Shown piece by piece: positions 1 through 10,228 of a DNA stretch of 11,563 bases (positions within the stretch are counted from its first letter, which is position 1; each line of letters begins with the position of its first letter). The stretch lies in the IMG/VR virus record IMGVR_UViG_2627853868_000010, one strand, 5' to 3'. The notes under the pieces are model-generated. The model did not search any database and was not told where the DNA came from. It saw only the letters and a program-made list of their open reading frames with translations. The DNA comes from a virus (lineage: Duplodnaviria; Heunggongvirae; Uroviricota; Caudoviricetes). The position numbers were made by a program, and so were the translations under genes.

Positions 1-303
1 TTAACGCGTATTTTTCAGCGACTCCTGTGCAAAATACGCTGTTGCTTTTTTTAATATATCTCGCTCAAGGCGAGCTTCATTTAACGCCTTACGCAGTTGC
101 AGAATTTCAGATTCCAGTTCAGCCACCGTGCGGGAACCAGGAGTACCGAGCCCTTTTCTGGCGGCGGTAACCCATTGTCCTAAAGTGCCTTCAGGAAGGG
201 ATAATCGGGAAGCGCCTTCACTGATCGAAAGTTGATTTTCAAGAACCGTTCTGACAGCTTCGGCTTTGAACTCTTTAGAGTAACGTTGGTTTTTTCTGCT
301 CAT
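1..303 (-). CDS. IS3-family transposase OrfA (helix-turn-helix plus leucine-zipper region)
   Basis: 100-aa ORF MSRKNQRYSKEFKAEAV...ILKKATAYFA, identical to the OrfA at 3758-4060; the C-terminal ILKKATAYFA motif is typical of IS3-family OrfA. Confidence 0.85.
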   Translation of the reverse strand: MSRKNQRYSKEFKAEAVRTVLENQLSISEGASRLSLPEGTLGQWVTAARKGLGTPGSRTVAELESEILQLRKALNEARLERDILKKATAYFAQESLKNTR

Positions 304-367
304 TATTAGCTCCTTCTGATGCCATTCTATTTCAGGAAGGAGTGTCCGTTAAACTCAGGCTACCTCA
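1..367 (-). mobile_element. IS3-family insertion sequence (IS600-like), partial copy; the rest of the element lies left of the window
   Basis: Positions 1-367 mirror 3694-4060 in reverse complement: same terminus TGAGGTAGCCTGAGTTTAACGGACACTCC (element end at 367) and an identical 100-aa OrfA. The window starts exactly at the OrfA stop codon. Confidence 0.85.
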
Positions 368-642
368 CTCCCTGGCGGATTTTTGCAGCGAATACAGCAA
401 CACAACCGGACGGGCAACGGCTACGCGCTTCGCGTTCCGTCCAGGCGGTTACGTGGATGATTTGAGATTCTCCGGCACTCAGTGCCAGAAAACGCCACAC
501 AAAGGCCGTTTGTGTGTGTACAAGGTGTGGTATATGATTTACAGCAACCATAACGGCTCCTAGTTTACGTTGTTGGTTAGACGCCCCGTATGTGTTCCCA
601 GCACTGCGGGGCGTTGCTCTTTGTATTTCAACAATCCTTTCG

Positions 643-722
643 GTGTGTTTCATGTTATGAGCGCATGAAACACACGTCAAGGCTTTTTGTATTTCTTTTT
701 TTGTGTATACTGAAACACACCG
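643..722 (+). promoter_or_regulatory. Candidate promoter/operator of the RHH gene: 12-bp perfect inverted repeat plus a third half-site over a -10-like hexamer
   Basis: GTGTGTTTCATG (643-654) and CATGAAACACAC (664-675) form a perfect inverted repeat with a 9-bp spacer. TGAAACACAC recurs at 711-720, overlapping TATACT (706-711). AGGAG at 729-733 precedes the ATG at 742. The -35 is weak. Confidence 0.3.
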
Positions 723-741
723 ATGATTAGGAGTTTCAGAA

Positions 742-1047
742 ATGGCAACGGCTAACAAAAACGCAAAATCACAACTGACAACTGTCAGAGTCCCACTAGA
801 TGTTATGCAAGGGATGGAATCCGTTAAGCTGGACGGTGAAAGCAATGCCGGATTTATCGTAACCGCCATGCGCGGAGAAATGGCCCGCCGCCAAGCAGAA
901 GGCAGCGGAGAAAATCCCCTTGTGTCGTCACTGGATGCCCTGGCTAAGGTCGAACAAATCGGCATCAAAGCAGCCGAGGAGATCGGGCAACTCGTCACCG
1001 TCGCGCGTGAAGAACTCCAGCGACGCAAGGTCAAAGAGCATGAATAG
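742..1047 (+). CDS. Ribbon-helix-helix (Arc/MetJ/CopG-like) DNA-binding protein with a C-terminal extension; hypothetical
   Basis: 101-aa ORF with an AGGAG RBS 8 nt upstream. The N-terminal segment TTVRVPLDVMQGMESVKLDGESNAGFIVTAM fits the RHH beta-strand/helix/G-x-S-x-N turn/helix pattern (compare Arc EENGRSVNSEIYQRV). Assigned from motif pattern only. Confidence 0.55.
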   Translation: MATANKNAKSQLTTVRVPLDVMQGMESVKLDGESNAGFIVTAMRGEMARRQAEGSGENPLVSSLDALAKVEQIGIKAAEEIGQLVTVAREELQRRKVKEHE

Positions 1048-1104
1048 CCAATATCAGCGCCATAGTTTGAGGAACGCAGGCGCATTGCTTTACAGGACAG
1101 CACC

Positions 1105-1284
1105 ATGAGCGACACAGAATCAACCAAAACACCATCACCAACTCGTAAGAGACGACGCAAAAATATAGCGCATGAACATGAATCAGAAAGATTCGCACCT
1201 TGTTCGTTTGCTCTTGAGAAATTCCTTAAAGAGCACAGGAAAAAGCTCTCGTTGCAAACCTTGGAACGAACCAAATCTGACTGA
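1105..1284 (+). CDS. Small basic hypothetical protein (59 aa), probably co-transcribed with the RHH gene
   Basis: ATG at 1105 with AGGA about 6 nt upstream; translation MSDTESTKTPSPTRKRRRKNIAHEHESERFAPCSFALEKFLKEHRKKLSLQTLERTKSD; stop at 1282-1284. Too short for the supplied ORF track; a + strand terminator lies downstream. Confidence 0.3.
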   Translation: MSDTESTKTPSPTRKRRRKNIAHEHESERFAPCSFALEKFLKEHRKKLSLQTLERTKSD

Positions 1285-1350
1285 TCACATTGCCCACCAG
1301 CCGCAAATGTGGCATTGTTGGTGATGCTTTTGTTTTCCCTTGTTCCCACT

Positions 1351-1380
1351 GGCGACCCTTTTGCGGTCGCCTTTGTTTTG
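1351..1380 (+). terminator. Rho-independent terminator for the + strand two-gene operon
   Basis: GGCGACC-CTTTTGC-GGTCGCC hairpin followed by TTTGTTTTG. Confidence 0.5.
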
Positions 1381-1959
1381 TCACTGAATGCGGTTACCAA
1401 AGTAAAACTCAGGCTGATATTCACGTATCAGCGTTTTTTCTTCTTCCTCCTGCTCACGCTTTTTGCGCTTACATGCCTGTAGCTCCCTCCCCTTCTCGCT
1501 GGCACTTATTTGATATTGCTCTTTACGGCGGGAAAAATCCTGTAATGCACCCCACGGGATACCATAAGTCCCCGTTTTTCTGATACCTGGTATCACATTT
1601 CTGAATACCCAGTTACTGAAACGATGAGCAAATGTGCCAGGCGTCGTTGCTTTGCGGCTGCGGGCTATTAGTTTGTAGAAACCTGACTCAGAGATAATTC
1701 TCATATTCTGATTTCCTCCTGGGGTGTAAGTTAAATTTACTCCCTTTTCATCATCATCAAGCATCTGCAACGCCGTACGCGAATTGGTTAGTTCCAGCGC
1801 AGCACAAACATCTTTTGCAACAAACCACGGATCGCCGTTCAGATACACCACACGAACGTTCACACTATCAAAGCGCAGAACGACGAGATCACGAATATCG
1901 CAGAATTTTTTCACTGGACGAGCGTACCCCTTGCCCGTCACGGCAATATTTTTATTCAT
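1381..1959 (-). CDS. Bro-N domain protein (phage antirepressor-like)
   Basis: 192-aa ORF; the N-terminal region VVYLNGDPWFVAKDVCAALELTNSRTALQMLDDDEKGV...MRIISESGFYKLIARSRKA...FRNVIPGIRKTGTY matches the Bro-N signature (EPWFVAKDV, DEDEKG, ISESGLY, IRKTG); C-terminal part is charged. Confidence 0.75.
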   Translation of the reverse strand: MNKNIAVTGKGYARPVKKFCDIRDLVVLRFDSVNVRVVYLNGDPWFVAKDVCAALELTNSRTALQMLDDDEKGVNLTYTPGGNQNMRIISESGFYKLIARSRKATTPGTFAHRFSNWVFRNVIPGIRKTGTYGIPWGALQDFSRRKEQYQISASEKGRELQACKRKKREQEEEEKTLIREYQPEFYFGNRIQ

Positions 1960-1974
1960 CGCGTTTTTACCTTA

Positions 1975-2002
1975 TAGACAAAAAACCCCTCGTGATGAGG
2001 GG
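1975..2002 (-). terminator. Candidate intrinsic terminator between alpA and the Bro-N gene (minus strand)
   Basis: On the minus strand, hairpin CCCCTC-ATCAC-GAGGGG (plus 1986-2002) followed by TTTTTGTCTAT, lying between the alpA stop (2016) and the Bro-N start (1959). Confidence 0.45.
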
Positions 2003-2015
2003 CATTATTTACTGG

Positions 2016-2273
2016 TTATTGCTGTTTTGTTTTTCCAGGTTTCCATCCAGGATGCCACTCACCACGGATCCATGCCTGAACCTCTGAAAGTCGATACCCT
2101 GCAGCACGTTCACCGATCTTGATACGTCGCGGGAATTTACCTGCCTGCTCCATTTTCCAGCGTGTTGAGTTTGCCAGCGTGGTAAGTGCTATGCACTCTT
2201 TTTCACGAATGAACCGATCAATGTCCTTCATTGTGCGCAAATCGTTTTCATCAACAAGAGAATAAATTGCCAT
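2016..2273 (-). CDS. alpA: AlpA-family prophage transcriptional regulator (HTH, excisionase-like)
   Basis: 85-aa ORF; ALTTLANSTRWKMEQAGKFPRRIKIGERAAGYRLSEVQAWI matches the AlpA/Phage_AlpA pattern. Its ATG at 2273 is 1 nt from the integrase stop (TGA at 2275-2277). Confidence 0.8.
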   Translation of the reverse strand: MAIYSLVDENDLRTMKDIDRFIREKECIALTTLANSTRWKMEQAGKFPRRIKIGERAAGYRLSEVQAWIRGEWHPGWKPGKTKQQ

Positions 2274-2427
2274 ATCACACCACCTCTTTATTAAGCTCGA
2301 TAACGTTGTTGTTAAATCCTGCTATCGTATTAAGGTAATTAACCCACATATTAAGCACCTCAAGTTTTTTCTTTATATGCCTGCTTTTATTGTAAACACC
2401 AGCAACCCCTTTCACTTTATGACCTAA

Positions 2428-2436
2428 AAGAAGTTC
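2428..2436. repeat. 9-bp target-site duplication AAGAAGTTC of IS1 (left copy)
   Basis: Identical 9-mer at 2428-2436 and 3205-3213, directly flanking IS1. Confidence 0.9.
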
Positions 2437-2451
2437 GGTAATGACTCCAAC

Positions 2452-2955
2452 TTATTGATAGTGTTTTATGTTCAGATAATGCCCGATGACTTTGTCATGC
2501 AGCTCCACCGATTTTGAGAACGACAGCGACTTCCGTCCCAGCCGTGCCAGGTGCTGCCTCAGATTCAGGTTATGCCGCTCAATTCGCTGCGTATATCGCT
2601 TGCTGATTACGTGCAGCTTTCCCTTCAGGCGGGATTCATACAGTGGCCAGCCATCCGTCATCCATATCACCACGTCAAAGGGTGACAGCAAGCTCATAAG
2701 ACGCCCCAGCGTCGCCATAGTGCGTTCACCGAATACGTGCGCAACAACCGTCTTCCGGAGCCTGTCATACGCGTAAAACAGCCAGCGCTGGCGCGATTTA
2801 GCCCCGACGTATCCCCACTGTTCGTCCATTTCCGCGCAGACGATGACGTCACTGCCCGGCTGTATGCGCGAGGTTACCGACTGCGGCCTGAGTTTTTTAA
2901 GTGACGTAAAATCGTGTTGAGGCTAACGCCCATAATGCGTGCAGTTGCCCGGCAT
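2452..2955 (-). CDS. insB: IS1 InsB frame (made as the InsAB' fusion by -1 frameshift)
   Basis: The track ORF 2452-2829 encodes the canonical InsB C-terminal 125 aa ([16 protein letters not shown]...NIKHYQ). The frame extends upstream to about 2955. An in-frame TAG replaces the Trp codon of HYGRW, but this lies upstream of the frameshift site and need not inactivate InsAB'. Confidence 0.7.
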
Positions 2956-3149
2956 CCAACGCCATTCATGGCCATATCAATAATTTTCTGGTGCGTACCG
3001 GGTTGAGAAGCGGTGTAAGTGAACTGCAGTTGCCATGTTTTACGGCAGTGAGAGCAGAGATAGCGCTGATGTCCGGCAGTGCTTTTGCCGTTACGCACCA
3101 CCCCGTCAGTAGCTGAACAGGAGGGACAGCTGATAGAAACAGAAGCCAC
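2874..3149 (-). CDS. insA: IS1 InsA (transposition repressor / N-terminal part of InsAB' transposase)
   Basis: 91-aa [43 protein letters not shown]... (zinc-finger CPSC/CSHC); ends in the A6C frameshift window. Differs from the other copy at several residues (e.g. GVSLNT vs GVGLNT). Confidence 0.9.
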
Positions 3150-3204
3150 TGGAGCACCTCAAAAACACCATCATACACTAAATCAGTAAGTTGGCAGCAT
3201 CACC

Positions 3205-3213
3205 AAGAAGTTC
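3205..3213. repeat. 9-bp target-site duplication AAGAAGTTC of IS1 (right copy)
   Basis: Same 9-mer as 2428-2436. Confidence 0.9.
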
Positions 3214-3757
3214 GACAATATAAGGATCCGCCCCCATATCATTAAGCGTAGTGGAAAATGTGCGCCTGAAATCATGTATGCACCACAAGCCATTAGTATC
3301 ATGACCAAGACGCCTGCATATTCTGTTTGCAGCCCCTGTTATTGTCGCCCTTTGCAAAGCACAACCGACAACATAACCGCGATTTTTTGTTTCTGCGTAA
3401 AGATTAACGATCCATTGTTTTATTCCGTCAGGAACAGGCCTTACTATAGCCTCCTTGTTTTTGCTGTGCTCTTTTGGGACTGTCCATACCCAGTTTTTTA
3501 AATCCCATTCGTCCCAGGTGGATAGCCTCGCCTCCTGCTGTCGGCAACCAAACACCAGGCAGATAACCATTATTCTTCGGTTATATATTGATGACAGAGT
3601 TAGCAAATTATTACCGTAAGCATAAGACCATACATCAGCGGTTTCATTGATATTAAGAACGCGATCCCTTATACCGGATGAGCGCCCGACATATGAGGTA
3701 GCCTGAGTTTAACGGACACTCCTTCCTGAAATAGAATGGCATCAGAAGGAGCTAATA

Positions 3758-4060
3758 ATGAGCAGAAAAAACCAACGTTACTCTAAAGAGTTCAAAGCCG
3801 AAGCTGTCAGAACGGTTCTTGAAAATCAACTTTCGATCAGTGAAGGCGCTTCCCGATTATCCCTTCCTGAAGGCACTTTAGGACAATGGGTTACCGCCGC
3901 CAGAAAAGGGCTCGGTACTCCTGGTTCCCGCACGGTGGCTGAACTGGAATCTGAAATTCTGCAACTGCGTAAGGCGTTAAATGAAGCTCGCCTTGAGCGA
4001 GATATATTAAAAAAAGCAACAGCGTATTTTGCACAGGAGTCGCTGAAAAATACGCGTTAA
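3758..4060 (+). CDS. IS3-family transposase OrfA
   Basis: 100-aa ORF identical to the one at 1-303; AGGAG RBS upstream of the ATG. Confidence 0.9.
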   Translation: MSRKNQRYSKEFKAEAVRTVLENQLSISEGASRLSLPEGTLGQWVTAARKGLGTPGSRTVAELESEILQLRKALNEARLERDILKKATAYFAQESLKNTR

Positions 4061-4095
4061 TCGAACAATGGCGACAACAATTTCCCATTGAAGCG

Positions 4096-4914
4096 ATGTG
4101 TCAGGTATTTGGTGTATCCAGGAGCGGTTATTACAACTGGGTACAGCATGAACCCTCAGACAGAAAACAAAGTGATGAGCGGCTAAAACTGGAGATTAAG
4201 GTGGCACATATCCGCACTCGCGAAACATATGGAACCCGGCGGCTCCAGACGGAGCTGGCAGAGAATGGCATCATCGTTGGTCGTGACCGACTGGCACGTC
4301 TTCGTAAGGAGCTAAGGCTACGCTGTAAGCAGAAACGCAAGTTCAGAGCGACTACGAACCCGAACCACAATCTGCCAGTTGCGCCAAATCTGCTGAACCA
4401 GACGTTCGCTCCTACAGCACCAAATCAGGTCTGGGTGGCGGACCTGACGTATGTTGCCACACAGGAGGGATGGTTGTACCTCGCTGGCATCAAAGATGTT
4501 TATACGTGCGAAATTGTCGGCTACGCCATGGGAGAGCGCATGACAAAAGAGCTGACAGGTAAAGCCCTGTTTATGGCGCTCAGGAGCCAGCGCCCACCTG
4601 CCGGGCTAATCCACCACTCTGATCGAGGTTCACAGTACTGCGCATACGATTACCGGGTCATACAGGAGCAGTCTGGTCTGAAAACATCAATGTCGCGTAA
4701 AGGTCACTGTTACGACAACGCTCCGATGGAAAGCTTCTGGGGAACGCTGAAAAATGAGAGCCTGAGCCACTATCGTTTTAATAACCGGGATGAAGCCATC
4801 TCAGTAATACGGGAATACATTGAGATTTTCTACAATCGTCAGCGTCGTCACTCTCGTCTGGGGAATATCTCCCCGGCAGCCTTCAGGGAAAAATATCATC
4901 AGATGGCTGCTTAA
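4096..4914 (+). CDS. IS3-family transposase OrfB (DDE integrase-like catalytic domain; probably made as OrfAB by -1 frameshift)
   Basis: 272-aa ORF with DDE-type motifs (VWVADLTYV, HHSDRGSQY, CYDNAPMESFWGTLK); its frame begins just after the OrfA stop. Confidence 0.85.
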   Translation: MCQVFGVSRSGYYNWVQHEPSDRKQSDERLKLEIKVAHIRTRETYGTRRLQTELAENGIIVGRDRLARLRKELRLRCKQKRKFRATTNPNHNLPVAPNLLNQTFAPTAPNQVWVADLTYVATQEGWLYLAGIKDVYTCEIVGYAMGERMTKELTGKALFMALRSQRPPAGLIHHSDRGSQYCAYDYRVIQEQSGLKTSMSRKGHCYDNAPMESFWGTLKNESLSHYRFNNRDEAISVIREYIEIFYNRQRRHSRLGNISPAAFREKYHQMAA

Positions 4915-4938: not shown

Positions 4939-6327
4939 CTATTGCCAGTACACCTCACAGTACATTGACCAGGATTTCGAGCTGTTATTTTTCTCAATTC
5001 GCAGAGCTTTATTGCCGCTGTCATCAACCAGTGTGCGTCTGCCATACATACCGTCCCAGCCATAAGGTTTCAGCTGATTGTCTGTAGCTTTTTTGGCATC
5101 GTAAAAAATTACAGACTCTGAGGTGGTAACCGGCCTGTCTGGAACAACCACCCCGGCAGTACCATTAACAAACGCAGAAGACTTACCCGCGCAGCTCAGA
5201 ATCGCCGTTGCCAGACGGTCGGAAATAATCCCACGGCGAGCCCATGAACTGAAATGGCTCGCCCTGTCCTGTGACGTCCAGGTGGCTGAGCTGTCACGCC
5301 ATTTCGAACCGTAATAACCGATACCCGGAATGTCCGGGTCTTCTTCCGGTTTGTTCGTCGGCACATTCACCCCGTTCTCATCGGTCATGAACGGTACGAA
5401 ATGGATATTCTTTTCCGTTTTATTTTTATAGCTGCCGTACACCGTCTGGTACGTGGATTCGTTCTTCTGCTTCCAGAAATACGTCGTGTCCCCGCATATC
5501 CAGGGAACACCGCCAGCAGAGCCACCGACGCACTGGCCTGCCATATCCGCCAGGTCTGCACGGAATTTATCAACCAGCGCACCAAACTGTGCGGCATGAT
5601 TTGCCGGCGTACCGCCAAAATCAAATTCCCCCTGCATCCACACCACGGCAAACAGCACATTTTTCGGGTTCTTCTCCAGTGCCGCTTTTGTTCGACCGAT
5701 AAGGTCCTTATACAGCGGCTTGTCCACACCCCAGCGGGTTGAATTCTCCGAGGCACCACTCGCGTCACTGTATGTGCCATCAGCTCCGGTGGTGAACGCT
5801 GAACCACCACGACAGCATGGAACCAGCAGAATGCCCGCATTCGCCGGTATAAACGGCAGCAGTTTTTTGGCGATATGCAGCCCCTGCCCCACGGTTCCGT
5901 ACTGCCCCTTTGACAGGTCCGCTTTCGGATGGTTAAGACGGCTCATGTCCTGCACATCATGCAGACAATGGTCCGCCGGAATGATGTCGTTATATTTGCA
6001 TGCTGCACCGCCCGGTGTCACCGTACTGCGACGCGCCAGTTGCTTAATACGCGGGTCCGGACGGTCATATGTCCCCGGCAGCGGAAGGCCTTCACCATAC
6101 GACATGCCGTTTGACTGCCCTGCCAGAACCACAACAAAGTAATACTCCGGGTCGCTGGTGGCGCTGATTACTGCACCTTCTGCTGCAATCGCCTGCATCA
6201 GAGTATAAGGGGTTATGGCCACCGGACTACCAAACGGCTGCCAGCCCTCTTTCAGTTTATGTGTCAGCTTTTCCGCAAGATCTGACGGCGACGCCGCCCT
6301 GACAACATCATAGTGTTTAAAAGCCAT
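4939..6327 (-). CDS. nanS: Prophage sialate O-acetylesterase (NanS-p-like; DUF1737 N-domain plus SGNH/DUF303 esterase domain), 3'-truncated by IS600
   Basis: 462-aa ORF with GGAGG RBS. Motifs VLAGQSNGMSYGEGLPLP, RIKQLARRSTVTPGG, YGTVGQ, LLPFIP, VPCCRGGSAFT, SHFSSWARRGIISDR match NanS/YjhS-type esterases as I recall them. The last 6 codons (CEVYWQ) and the stop are read from the IS600 end (4939-4957). Confidence 0.8.
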   Translation of the reverse strand: MAFKHYDVVRAASPSDLAEKLTHKLKEGWQPFGSPVAITPYTLMQAIAAEGAVISATSDPEYYFVVVLAGQSNGMSYGEGLPLPGTYDRPDPRIKQLARRSTVTPGGAACKYNDIIPADHCLHDVQDMSRLNHPKADLSKGQYGTVGQGLHIAKKLLPFIPANAGILLVPCCRGGSAFTTGADGTYSDASGASENSTRWGVDKPLYKDLIGRTKAALEKNPKNVLFAVVWMQGEFDFGGTPANHAAQFGALVDKFRADLADMAGQCVGGSAGGVPWICGDTTYFWKQKNESTYQTVYGSYKNKTEKNIHFVPFMTDENGVNVPTNKPEEDPDIPGIGYYGSKWRDSSATWTSQDRASHFSSWARRGIISDRLATAILSCAGKSSAFVNGTAGVVVPDRPVTTSESVIFYDAKKATDNQLKPYGWDGMYGRRTLVDDSGNKALRIEKNNSSKSWSMYCEVYWQ

Positions 6328-6521
6328 GAATCCTCCCGGCCGGGATAATATTGTGAGTAAAATGAGGAGCGGGCTGAAGTCCGGAAGTTACAGGACAATG
6401 GCAGAAGAGAGACGACAGCCCGCAATTCGAAAAAGACCGCGCAGTTGCGCAGAGTGATTACTATGGGGTATTATTCGCCAGCTGAAATATTACTTCACGT
6501 TTTGTTGTTTATTCCTTGCCG

Positions 6522-6549
6522 CCCGCGTCTCCCAGCGCGGGCTTTTTTT
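6522..6549 (+). terminator. Intrinsic terminator-like hairpin plus T-tract on the + strand
   Basis: CCCGCG-TCTCCCAG-CGCGGG followed by CTTTTTTT. Confidence 0.4.
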
Positions 6550-6776
6550 GCCCACAAGAAAGCCCCTCCGGAGAGGGGCTGGAGAGTGGCGCTATGTGCC
6601 ATTGCATGGTGCCGGGTGCCTCCCGGTGAATTCAGTACCAGCACCTGAATCCGCGATTATCCCATATACCTACTCGCTGATTGCCCCTCCGCACAGGGGG
6701 ATTCACCATGCCAGTTTCTTTTAACAAACTCCCCGCAAACCAGACAACAGTCAACCGTCTGAATTGTGAGACATTT

Positions 6777-6801
6777 AAAAAAAAAGCCCGCAAAAGCGAG
6801 C
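6777..6801 (-). terminator. Strong Rho-independent terminator just downstream of the tRNA cluster (minus strand)
   Basis: On the minus strand, GCTCGC-TTTT-GCGGGC hairpin (one G-U pair) followed by nine T, starting 15 nt after the 3' end of tRNA-Arg(UCU). Confidence 0.55.
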
Positions 6802-6816
6802 CAGGGAAAATAAGTG

Positions 6817-6893
6817 TGGCGCGTTGTACTGGATTCGAACCAGTGACCGATTGCTTAGAAGGCAATTGCTCTGTCCGGCTGAGCTAACAACGC
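6817..6893 (-). tRNA. argO: tRNA-Arg (anticodon UCU), prophage-encoded
   Basis: Minus-strand 77-nt cloverleaf GCGTTGT-TA-GCTC-AGCCGGACA-GAGC-A-ATTGC-CTTCTAA-GCAAT-CGGTC-ACTGG-TTCGAAT-CCAGT-ACAACGC-G-CCA. Perfect 7-bp acceptor stem, encoded CCA. Gene symbol assigned by position in the cluster. Confidence 0.85.
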
Positions 6894-6906
6894 ATGATGC
6901 AGATAA

Positions 6907-6983
6907 TGGACCGCCATCGGGGACTTGAACCCCGCGCAGCCAGCTTCGAAGGCTGGCGCTCTTTCCTGATGAGCTAATGGCGG
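6907..6983 (-). tRNA. argN: tRNA-Arg (anticodon UCG), prophage-encoded
   Basis: Minus-strand 77-nt cloverleaf CCGCCAT-TA-GCTC-ATCAGGAAA-GAGC-G-CCAGC-CTTCGAA-GCTGG-CTGCG-CGGGG-TTCAAGT-CCCCG-ATGGCGG-T-CCA. Gene symbol assigned by position in the cluster. Confidence 0.8.
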
Positions 6984-6990
6984 TATGTGA

Positions 6991-7066
6991 TGGTGGCCCT
7001 TGCTGGATTTGAACCAGCGACCTGGCGATTATGAGTCGCTCGCTCTCACCACTGAGCTAAAGGGCC
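6991..7066 (-). tRNA. ileZ: tRNA-Ile2 (anticodon CAU, ileX-like; reads AUA after lysidine modification), prophage-encoded
   Basis: Minus-strand 76-nt sequence GGCCCTTTAGCTCAGTGGTGAGAGCGAGCGACTCATAATCGCCAGGTCGCTGGTTCAAATCCAGCAAGGGCCACCA, near-identical to E. coli ileX as I recall it; anticodon loop CTCATAA. Confidence 0.85.
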
Positions 7067-9467: not shown

Positions 9468-9979
9468 GGGCAAATCCACTGATAGTGTTTTATGTTCAGA
9501 TAATGCCCGATGACCTTGTCATGCAGCTCCACCGATTTTGAGAACGACAGTGACTTCCGTCCCAGCCTTGCCAGATGTTGTCTCAGATTCAGATTATGTC
9601 GCTCAATGCGCTGAGTGTAACGCTTGCTGATAACGTGCAGCTTTCCCTTCAGGCGTGATTCATACAGCGGCCAGCCATCCGTCATCCATACCACGACCTC
9701 AAAGGCCGACAGCAGGCTCAGAAGACGCTCCAGTGTGGCCAGAGTGCGTTCACCGAAGACGTGCGCCACAACCGTCCTCCGTATCCTGTCATACGCGTAA
9801 AACAGCCAGCGCTGACGTGATTTAGCACCGACGTAGCCCCACTGTTCGTCCATTTCAGCGCAGACAATCACATCACTGCCCGGTTGTATGCGCGAGGTTA
9901 CCGACTGCGGCCTGAGTTTTTTAAGTGACGTAAAACCGTGTTGAGGCCAACGCCCATAATGCGTGCACTGGCGCGACAT
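9392..9979 (-). CDS. insB: IS1 InsB (copy 2) with its stop codon lost to the IS2 insertion; the ORF reads 31 extra codons into IS2
   Basis: 195-aa ORF ...[44 protein letters not shown]...NIKHYQ followed by [28 protein letters not shown] read from the IS2 right end. The native InsB part is 9479-9979. Confidence 0.8.
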
Positions 9980-10173
9980 CCGACGCCATTCATGGCCATA
10001 TCAATGATTTTCTGGTGCGTACCGGGCTGAGAGGCGGTGTAAGTGAACTGTAGTTGCCATGTTTTACGGCAATGAGAGCAGAGATAGCGCTGATGTCCGG
10101 CAGTGCTTTTGCCGTTACGCACCACGCCTTCAGTAGCGGAGCAGGAAGGACATCTGATGGAAATGGAAGCCAC
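9898..10173 (-). CDS. insA: IS1 InsA (copy 2, divergent isoform)
   Basis: 91-aa [43 protein letters not shown]...; differs from the copy at 2874-3149 at several residues. Confidence 0.9.
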
Positions 10174-10228
10174 GCAAGCACCTTAAAATCACCATCATAC
10201 ACTAAATCAGTAAGTTGGCAGCATTACC

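Follow-up and report, generated by a model that had tools for sequence, protein, structure and literature searches.

A conserved, phased repeat array beside a predicted ribbon-helix-helix gene: a probable repressor/operator switch in a Gram-negative phage satellite

Here, we describe a conserved array of short repeats, and the predicted ribbon-helix-helix (RHH) gene that adjoins it, in IMG/VR virus record IMGVR_UViG_2627853868_000010, a stretch of 11,563 nucleotides that we call the window and whose coordinates are used throughout. The repeats of the core 10-mer TGAAACACAC form a real, non-random and conserved array, which occupies the 190-bp gap between an icd-like/replication operon running leftward and the gene for a 101-amino acid YlcI/YnfO-family protein running rightward. 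The element that carries them is the remnant, broken by insertion sequences (IS), of a satellite: a Gram-negative phage-inducible chromosomal island (PICI) of the EcCICFT073 or helper-embedded type. Judging from comparative analysis of related loci, we consider it probable that array and protein act together as an RHH repressor/operator switch, keeping the satellite's replication operon silent and also regulating the RHH gene itself. The protein encoded at 742-1047 probably keeps the PICI satellite silent, a role without a named repressor in E. coli islands of this type; the switch would be of a familiar kind, in an element class to which no repressor had previously been assigned.

Exact copies of the core can be read from the sequence at 643-652 (minus strand), 666-675 (plus) and 711-720 (plus), and these three intergenic places are the only ones in the whole window. 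The first two belong to a palindrome made of GTGTGTTTCATG (643-654), a 9-nt spacer (655-663) and CATGAAACACAC (664-675), which a repeat finder extends imperfectly to 629-654/664-689 (26 nt, 81% complementary); the same program finds the third copy, extended to TGAAACACACCGA at 711-723, to be a 13-nt perfect complement of 640-652. A preliminary description of this region, made from the sequence alone, had reported the palindrome with its 9-nt spacer, the third copy, a −10-like TATACT at 706-711 and the open reading frame (ORF) at 742-1047, and all of these lie where it had placed them. It counted three copies, which are indeed the perfect ones, but a search for the best self-similar 9-mer adds two in-phase copies with one mismatch each, TGTATTTCA at 622-630 and TGTATTTCT at 688-696. 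There are thus four or five sites in all, phased at about 22 bp, with centers at 626, 648, 670, 692 and 715 (spacing 22, 22, 22 and 23 bp) and orientations in the window of > > < > <. The term ‘half-site’ that had been applied to the copies is probably a misnomer, each non-palindromic copy being more likely a whole site for a protein dimer. Chance does not readily produce such an array: with one mismatch allowed the window holds 5 hits against 0.92 expected, a number reached in 0 of 200 shuffles, and of 5000 shuffles of the 190-bp intergenic region that preserved dinucleotides, one gave an inverted repeat of at least 12 nt and none gave three copies of any 10-mer. An intact 25-kb locus (L001, from E. 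coli CFSAN018748) also has exact copies of TGAAACACAC at the same three places only.

We compared the window with 27 loci encoding relatives of the protein, which came from a scan of species-representative genomes (8 loci), look-ups of exact proteins and an E. coli collection, and which cover Escherichia, Xenorhabdus, Photorhabdus, Morganella, Serratia, Cronobacter, Enterobacter, Klebsiella, Edwardsiella, Pantoea, Lelliottia and Yersinia. The sites (O0 to O4), the elements of the two divergent promoters (P_left and P_right) and the RHH gene are as follows, class A being the loci that share the window's core:

622-630, plus strand: O0, a weak outlier TGTATTTCA with one mismatch, in phase, poorly conserved in other genera
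640-654, minus strand: O1, strong, left arm of the palindrome with core 643-652, its −98 position from the ATG kept in the 27 loci
657-652, minus strand: −10 of P_left, TAACAT, from the promoter scan
664-676, plus strand: O2, strong, right arm of the palindrome with core 666-675, its −76 position from the ATG kept in all loci
680-675, minus strand: −35 of P_left, TTGACG, from the promoter scan, with a 17-nt spacer to the −10
688-696, minus strand: O3, weak, TGTATTTCT, one mismatch from the core and in the orientation of O1, in the spacer/−35 zone of P_right
706-711, plus strand: −10-like TATACT of P_right, from the sequence, with TATAMT/TAATGT conserved at constant spacing in most of the 27 loci
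711-723, plus strand: O4, strong, TGAAACACACCGA, directly downstream of the P_right −10, its −31 position conserved
729-733, plus strand: Shine-Dalgarno sequence AGGAG of the RHH gene, from the sequence, its GGAG invariant in class A
742-1047, plus strand: YlcI/YnfO-family protein, 101 amino acids, with a predicted N-terminal RHH domain (residues ~9-54) and a long C-terminal helix (59-100)

A consensus scan of the gap calls one good sigma-70-like promoter, P_left, on the minus strand. O1 starts on the last base of its −10 and spans the predicted leftward start, and O2 occupies the upstream portion of its spacer and reaches the −35. The GTCAA-like complement of that −35 is conserved in position (exact in 22/27 loci, one base off in the other 5/27), and a TAAnnT-like −10 is kept at the same position in most loci. 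The preliminary description had assigned the palindrome to the RHH gene's own promoter; it sits instead on the conserved divergent P_left, and the main predicted target is therefore the leftward operon, with autoregulation only part of the switch. In this respect the earlier proposal of an operator for an adjacent autoregulated RHH protein holds up in its choice of protein, which comparative evidence and the predicted fold both favor, and needs amending in its choice of target.

O3 and O4 flank the −10 of P_right, again at conserved positions. O4 covers the predicted start of the RHH mRNA and begins on the last base of that −10, so that the overlap previously noted between the third copy and TATACT comes down to the single base T711 and the two elements abut. 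The O4 sequence co-varies with O1/O2 in every lineage, and O3, despite its mismatch, is preserved as TGTATTTC in 8/8 class-A loci from five genera, with an equivalent −53 site in classes B, C, D, E and G. The status of O0, which overlaps the T-rich tail of an upstream stem-loop, is uncertain. This layout makes it improbable that the RHH protein autoregulates only its own small operon, in the manner of a type II antitoxin, and leaves the leftward icd-like/replication operon uncontrolled: the −10 of the conserved P_left is flanked by the two strongest sites, the divergent arrangement with the icd-like operon is invariant, and the ORF downstream of the RHH gene is absent from most loci.

Synteny is constant across the loci, the RHH gene lying divergent from the icd-like operon across a gap of ~190-210 bp. 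The sites recur at about −98, −76, −53 and −31 from the ATG in the 27 loci, and the spacers between them diverge. The sequence of the sites is lineage-specific, and it follows residues 12 and 14 of the predicted beta-ribbon:

Strand QLTTVRV, residues 12/14 L/T: site TGAAACACAC, in five genera (class A)
Strand KQISIRI, residues 12/14 Q/S: site TGAATCACA
Strand QSLTARI, residues 12/14 S/T: site GTCTTACAC
Strand QQLNARF, residues 12/14 Q/N: site TGAATACCA or TGAATCGCA
Strand QIKNVRV, residues 12/14 I/N: site ATGCACAC or ATACACAC
Strand QMKNIRF, residues 12/14 M/N: class-specific GTGT/ACAC-rich sites, for example GGTGTAT(G/A)TACAG at O1 and GTGTACACAC at O4
Strand QMTT(I/V)R, residues 12/14 M/T: site TGATATACAC or TGAAATACAC
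Strand QALKARV, residues 12/14 A/K: site GTGTGGCCCAC

Of 10 site bases, 8.97 are common to loci with the same residue pair and 6.68 to loci with different pairs, a difference that 0 of 5000 label permutations reach, with the caveat that relatedness among the loci inflates the statistic. Five loci fetched later as an attempt at falsification confirmed classes B, C and F and added two near-misses, to which we return below. Sites thus change together with the DNA-reading part of the protein, imperfectly for Q/N and M/T.

No such co-change links the motif to the rest of the neighborhood. Between the window and L014 or L012, the Icd-like proteins are 77-80% identical and the C-terminal domains of the RHH proteins 88%, the N-terminal domains are 54% identical, and the motifs differ; between the window and the Xenorhabdus/Photorhabdus loci, the Icd-like proteins are 31-38% identical and the motif is the same. 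L014 and L015 have identical RHH genes and operators with AlpA proteins that are 13-18% identical, L019, L020 and L022 have AlpA proteins that are 61-77% identical and three different motifs, and replicase families vary inside one motif class (D5_N/primase, Toprim/DUF927 and AAA_25). Since the motif follows neither the Icd-like protein nor AlpA, and neither the replicase nor the RHH protein's C-terminal helix, the operator array and the N-terminal domain appear to recombine as one block, a pattern that would be expected of an immunity determinant.

The same comparisons bear on whether these are real operators read by some other protein, be it AlpA, the Icd-like protein, the product of a small downstream gene (ORF59), the replicase, or a helper-phage or host factor. 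AlpA is the sole experimentally established regulator of these islands, and the PHROG families that match the Icd-like protein are labelled ‘transcriptional repressor’. However, the class of the motif is uncoupled from AlpA, the Icd-like protein and the type of replicase; ORF59 is missing from many loci, and although the window (class A) and EcCICFT073 (class H) carry visibly similar homologues of it, their motifs differ; and a host or helper factor would leave eight lineage-specific motifs in one species unexplained. The only element that tracks the motif is the N-terminal domain of the RHH protein, and we regard a different binder as distinctly unlikely.

That domain matches NCBIfam NF041551 (YlcI_YnfO_N) over residues 9-50 with 58.1 bits against a cutoff of 30. 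An AlphaFold2 model of the protein shows an extended segment, helices at 19-28 and 35-54, and one long helix at 59-100, so that its N-terminal part has the beta-strand and two helices of the RHH fold; the structural matches of the N-domain model are almost exclusively RHH proteins. The strand is two-faced, with positions 12, 14 and 16 polar or variable (R16 is invariant), positions 13, 15 and 17 hydrophobic, and P18 invariant. An hhalign comparison with Arc, at a probability of only 7.8%, puts residues 12/14/16 opposite Q9/N11/R13, the residues with which Arc contacts bases. Curated families recognize the protein poorly: no Pfam RHH model reaches threshold with it or with 26 homologues; PSK_trans_fac matches 21/26 members with a best E of 0.00098, all below cutoff. 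A Foldseek search of the full-length model against the PDB returned nothing, and a PDB sequence-profile search with the protein gave no meaningful match. Because of the fold model, the two-faced strand pattern and the Arc register, we accept the RHH assignment as a well-supported prediction.

Together, these data suggest a model for the switch. The adjacent RHH protein is the most likely reader of the array; we infer that it binds and represses there, that it oligomerises through its C-terminal helix, and that it may have a role in induction. The array would offer three strong sites (O1, O2 and O4) and one or two weak ones (O3 and possibly O0; TGAAATACA), and because their centers are 22-23 bp apart, about two helical turns, all of them would lie on one face of the DNA. 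At each site, the beta-ribbon of an RHH dimer would enter the major groove, with residues 12, 14 and 16 as the predicted base contacts, and the long C-terminal helix would join dimers bound two turns apart. Complexes at O1/O2 would block RNA polymerase at P_left, and complexes at O3/O4 would block it at P_right, with the outcome of a silent satellite and a self-limiting level of repressor. It is the replication operon and the RHH mRNA start that the strong sites would guard, and the weakness of O3 (TGAAATACA) in all class-A loci suggests a graded autoregulation.

Several observations weigh against this model or complicate it. The consensus scan does not call P_right, whose −35 is poor, and we infer that promoter from conservation and position instead. 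The two near-misses, L014 and L031 (both Q/N, with cores that differ at 2/9 bases) and L020 and L032 (both M/T, differing at 1/10), mean that any code in residues 12 and 14 is approximate. The coding sequence for the N-terminal domain starts 22 bp from O4, and linkage alone could keep the two together through recombination. Over-expression of AlpA alone induces EcCICFT073 (PMC6092414), so any repression by the RHH protein must be bypassable; transcription driven by alpA and converging into the RHH operon would be one possible way to reconcile the two. Moreover, the RHH protein of EcCICFT073 is a short form that lacks the C-terminal helix.

The preliminary description had offered a second explanation for the palindrome, an RNA hairpin acting as attenuator, which we reject. 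The palindrome of the window does fold (12-13-bp stem, −23 kcal/mol, z = −4.5), a T-rich tract follows the extended imperfect stem, and pair counting over O1/O2 shows that the complementarity of the arms co-varies across lineages A-D. Equal co-variation of the arms would result if one protein site were present in inverted copies, however, and we therefore judge this last point uninformative. The same motif co-varies at O3 and O4, which are outside the stem: the O4 core agrees with O1 and O2 of its own locus at 8.1 and 8.0 of 10 bases, with values of 8.9 and 8.7 for same-class comparisons and 6.5 for other classes. Classes E, G and H have O1 and O2 as direct repeats, with different pairing partners in the predicted folds, and in L002 and L007 single arms have changed without compensation. 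Between the perfect stem and the T-run stands GTCAAGGC, and a terminator scan does not call the palindrome. Finally, the hairpin holds the P_left −10, touches the −35 and precedes the P_right −10, so its whole stem is in neither predicted transcript, both predicted starts falling inside or downstream of it. An attenuator or terminator upstream of the RHH gene is thus highly improbable.

A different stem-loop, at 582-614 on the plus strand with a T-rich tail to ~630, is conserved between the icd-like start codon and the operators. In 18 loci, 6/13 of its consensus pairs show compensatory changes, and in 18/19 loci the hairpin is stabler on the plus strand because of G-U pairs (mean −23.9 versus −17.5 kcal/mol). 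It may be the terminator of a plus-strand RNA antisense to the icd-like leader. A TGnTATGAT-like extended −10 at ~528-538 (plus strand) is conserved within icd-like codons 3-6, where the protein itself is variable. Stem-loop and extended −10 together suggest a candidate cis-antisense RNA of ~80 nt that would cover the icd-like ribosome-binding site and start codon. A search of Rfam with window positions 1-2200 (E ≤ 1) found no RNA family match and no C4/IsrK, and Rfam at gathering score in ten sources, the window and nine related loci, likewise gave neither a family match to this region nor C4/IsrK.

We give almost no weight to the idea that the phased repeats are iterons of a replication origin. 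Spacing of ~22 bp is typical of iterons. Initiator-specific repeats are not what we see, the motif class being independent of the type of replicase; moreover, the sites are 9-10 bp long, stand in mixed orientation and have promoter hexamers between them, and published PICI origins lie downstream of pri (PMC10111431).

If the array is instead the operator region of an RHH repressor, one of the closest known systems is immI of phage P22 (Mnt/Arc, divergent Pant/Pmnt, sar RNA). In immI, a small RHH repressor is encoded divergently from the operon it represses, with operators on the promoter hexamers, and the satellite shares both the divergent small RHH gene and sites on promoter hexamers. Mnt has a C-terminal helical oligomerisation domain after its RHH domain, to which the C-terminal helix of the 742-1047 product may be likened, and in P22 the first regulated gene is the target of a short cis-antisense RNA, which the candidate plus-strand RNA over the icd-like leader parallels. 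The differences are also clear: homology to Mnt is undetectable (hhalign aligns 11 columns only, E = 0.13), the match to Arc is the weak one given above, and the module is carried by a satellite instead of a phage. For Mnt and Arc the operator is single, compact and symmetric, its half-sites separated by about one helical turn, unlike the 4-5 non-palindromic sites, two turns apart and in mixed orientation, found here. Another comparison is with the Omega repressor of pSM19035 and ParG/CopG-type proteins, whose dimers read short non-palindromic repeats, direct or inverted, arrayed over promoters; the mixed orientations of the sites described here, which form direct pairs in classes E, G and H, agree with such reading. 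The Omega heptads are contiguous with a 7-bp period, in contrast to the 22-23 bp here with promoter elements between the sites, and the comparison is at the level of the fold.

Among satellites, the master repressors Stl/Rpr of SaPIs and other Gram-positive PICIs are larger helix-turn-helix proteins unrelated to RHH, whose derepression by helper-phage proteins has been demonstrated. The stl/rpr gene lies divergent from the excision/replication operon with the control region between (PMC6092414), the same position in the element as the RHH gene, which shares with it a predicted island-silencing role. The regulator established for Gram-negative PICIs is an activator, AlpA, and the founding paper describes the global repressor of these islands as unclear (PMC6092414). 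Some Gram-negative PICIs are reported to have P4-type RNA immunity (CI/C4, seqA/IsrK) in the Bro zone, before the icd/kil-like first gene (PMC10111431). The RHH module shares this zone between alpA and the replication genes, and supposedly the purpose; unlike P4-type immunity, its control appears to be protein-based, in keeping with the lack of a C4/IsrK match in the window and nine related loci. The N-terminal domain also matches YlcI of DLP12 and YnfO of Qin in E. coli K-12, on which NF041551 is built, but the satellite proteins add the C-terminal helix (in the long form) and stand in another genomic context. The searchable literature holds nothing on the function of YlcI or YnfO, which are uncharacterised.

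A wider reading joins four ideas, and we offer the combination only tentatively, as possible but on balance doubtful. First, the YlcI/YnfO-type RHH protein would be the missing master repressor of Gram-negative PICIs including EcCICFT073, with residues 12 and 14 as a recognition code. Second, this code would sort satellites into at least eight immunity groups, allowing co-resident islands to avoid cross-regulation. Third, the C-terminal helix would bridge sites and perhaps serve as the target of a helper phage for island induction. Fourth, with the cis-antisense RNA over the icd-like leader, the whole would make up a tripartite switch resembling P22 immI and found in satellites only. Gram-negative PICIs are widespread and mobilise virulence and defence genes, and their control is known through AlpA alone; a conserved RHH gene, divergent from the replication operon and with an operator array over that operon's promoter, is a concrete candidate for the silencer, and it is present in the prototype island. 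In addition, at least eight protein/operator pairs that differ mainly at two ribbon residues would be a natural specificity series, useful for studies of RHH recognition and for orthogonal repressors. Our searches of the literature (PICI with RHH, PICI master repressor, EcCICFT073, YlcI/YnfO) found neither the gene nor the sites described.

The assignment of the element to Gram-negative PICIs rests on the intact relative L001, to part of which window positions 364-2437 and 3205-3693 are 99.9-100% identical. The gene order there is int, alpA, Bro-N, the YlcI/YnfO gene on the opposite strand, icd-like, three small ORFs, DUF4222 and primase, and after the primase SSB, capsid, head decoration, HTH and TerS. 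These ordered, mostly unidirectional gene zones, captured late genes included, match the order in Gram-negative PICIs (PMC6092414), and the order in EcCICFT073 is the same. The element is of the helper-embedded type described by Mageeney et al. (PMC10111431). The intact satellite (L001 3647-16147) is inserted in a lambdoid prophage, within the portal gene, fragments of which flank it at either end, and has a lambda E-like capsid and a D-like decoration protein of its own plus a TerS gene; relatives in L010 and L011 adjoin a capsid-gene fragment. The other features of the satellite part of the window are:

360-551, minus strand: icd-like gene, first of the leftward operon (NCBIfam NF033153 phage_ICD_like, 63.8 bits, cutoff 25)
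1105-1284, plus strand: ORF59, small basic protein, second rightward gene (phrog_21027, E = 5e-15)
1351-1371, plus strand: terminator-like hairpin with T-run that would end the rightward operon, from the terminator scan
1381-1959, minus strand: Bro-N, from the domain search
2016-2273, minus strand: alpA, from the domain search

In the window this module is a relic, its array intact and its target operon cut off by an IS3. Comparison of translations with the intact copy shows that the leftward operon is severed three codons before the end of the icd-like gene, homology to L001 starting at 364. Inverted IS3 copies bracket the satellite fragment, at 1-367 and from 3694 (3694-4914), window positions 1-367 being the exact reverse complement of 3694-4060. 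The int gene, also cut by IS3, is split by an IS1 (2438-3204) with a duplication of ~10 bp, L001 14029-14038 being present on each side of it. There is a further IS1-like copy, with 91% identity, at 9480-10228. ORF59 is very basic and contains RKRRRKNIAHEHESERFAPCSFALEKFL; the function of phrog_21027 is not known. A homologue follows the RHH gene in EcCICFT073, some other islands conserve the protein as well, and many loci are without it.

The module of EcCICFT073 has the expected form, with a RefSeq 59-amino acid YlcI/YnfO protein divergent from an icd-like gene (L026 8474-8653; NC_004431 1380473-1380652) and, in the control region, two GGTGTGGCCCAC copies and a third related site at the expected positions. 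Its short form of the protein, 59-61 amino acids with the whole C-terminal helix missing (...GEIKRRQ|RRKAKEQE), is also found in L031, L032 and L033, and recurs in O157:H7 and other strains, where control regions usually have three sites, not four. In L033 (893-1813, E. coli CB6837), two short-form RHH cassettes stand in tandem, each with its own hairpin remnant, site set and small downstream ORF, and with predicted specificities of S/T with GTCTTACAC and M/T with TGAAATACAC.

Another variant occurs in a PICI at roxA in E. coli O157:H7 NE92 (L028), where the YlcI-type gene is absent and an unannotated 57-amino acid ORF (4089-4274) has the same place and orientation; RefSeq has a pseudogene on the opposite strand instead. 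Islands of this type keep the icd-like leader and hairpin, 97% identical to window positions 552-624. The ORF starts MSTPLEKRSPPYQMRLPEDF, scores E = 0.038 with Pfam Arc and E = 0.0014 with YlcI_YnfO_N, and has its start codon overlapped by a perfect 14-bp palindrome, ATGGTAATTACCAT; it looks like an alternative RHH cassette.

The RHH/operator region is common in E. coli, matching 1384/5426 complete genomes; in 349 of these the match covers at least 80% of the region. A tblastn search of 50,697 phage records with the protein family found no match, and a search of plasmids gave four partial hits only, one of which is a whole PICI as a circle. This 10,790-bp circular ‘plasmid’ record (L027, NZ_CP148328.1) is a complete PICI with int, alpA, RHH, icd-like, DUF4222, primase, a protease-capsid fusion and tail assembly genes, and is possibly an excised, replicating satellite captured in an assembly. 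Outside the satellite, the window encodes a DUF1737/SASA esterase (4939-6327, minus strand), an STnc100 small RNA (6550-6740, minus) and three tRNA genes (6820-7066, minus), and the content of 4939-7066 is typical cargo of the late region of lambdoid prophages.

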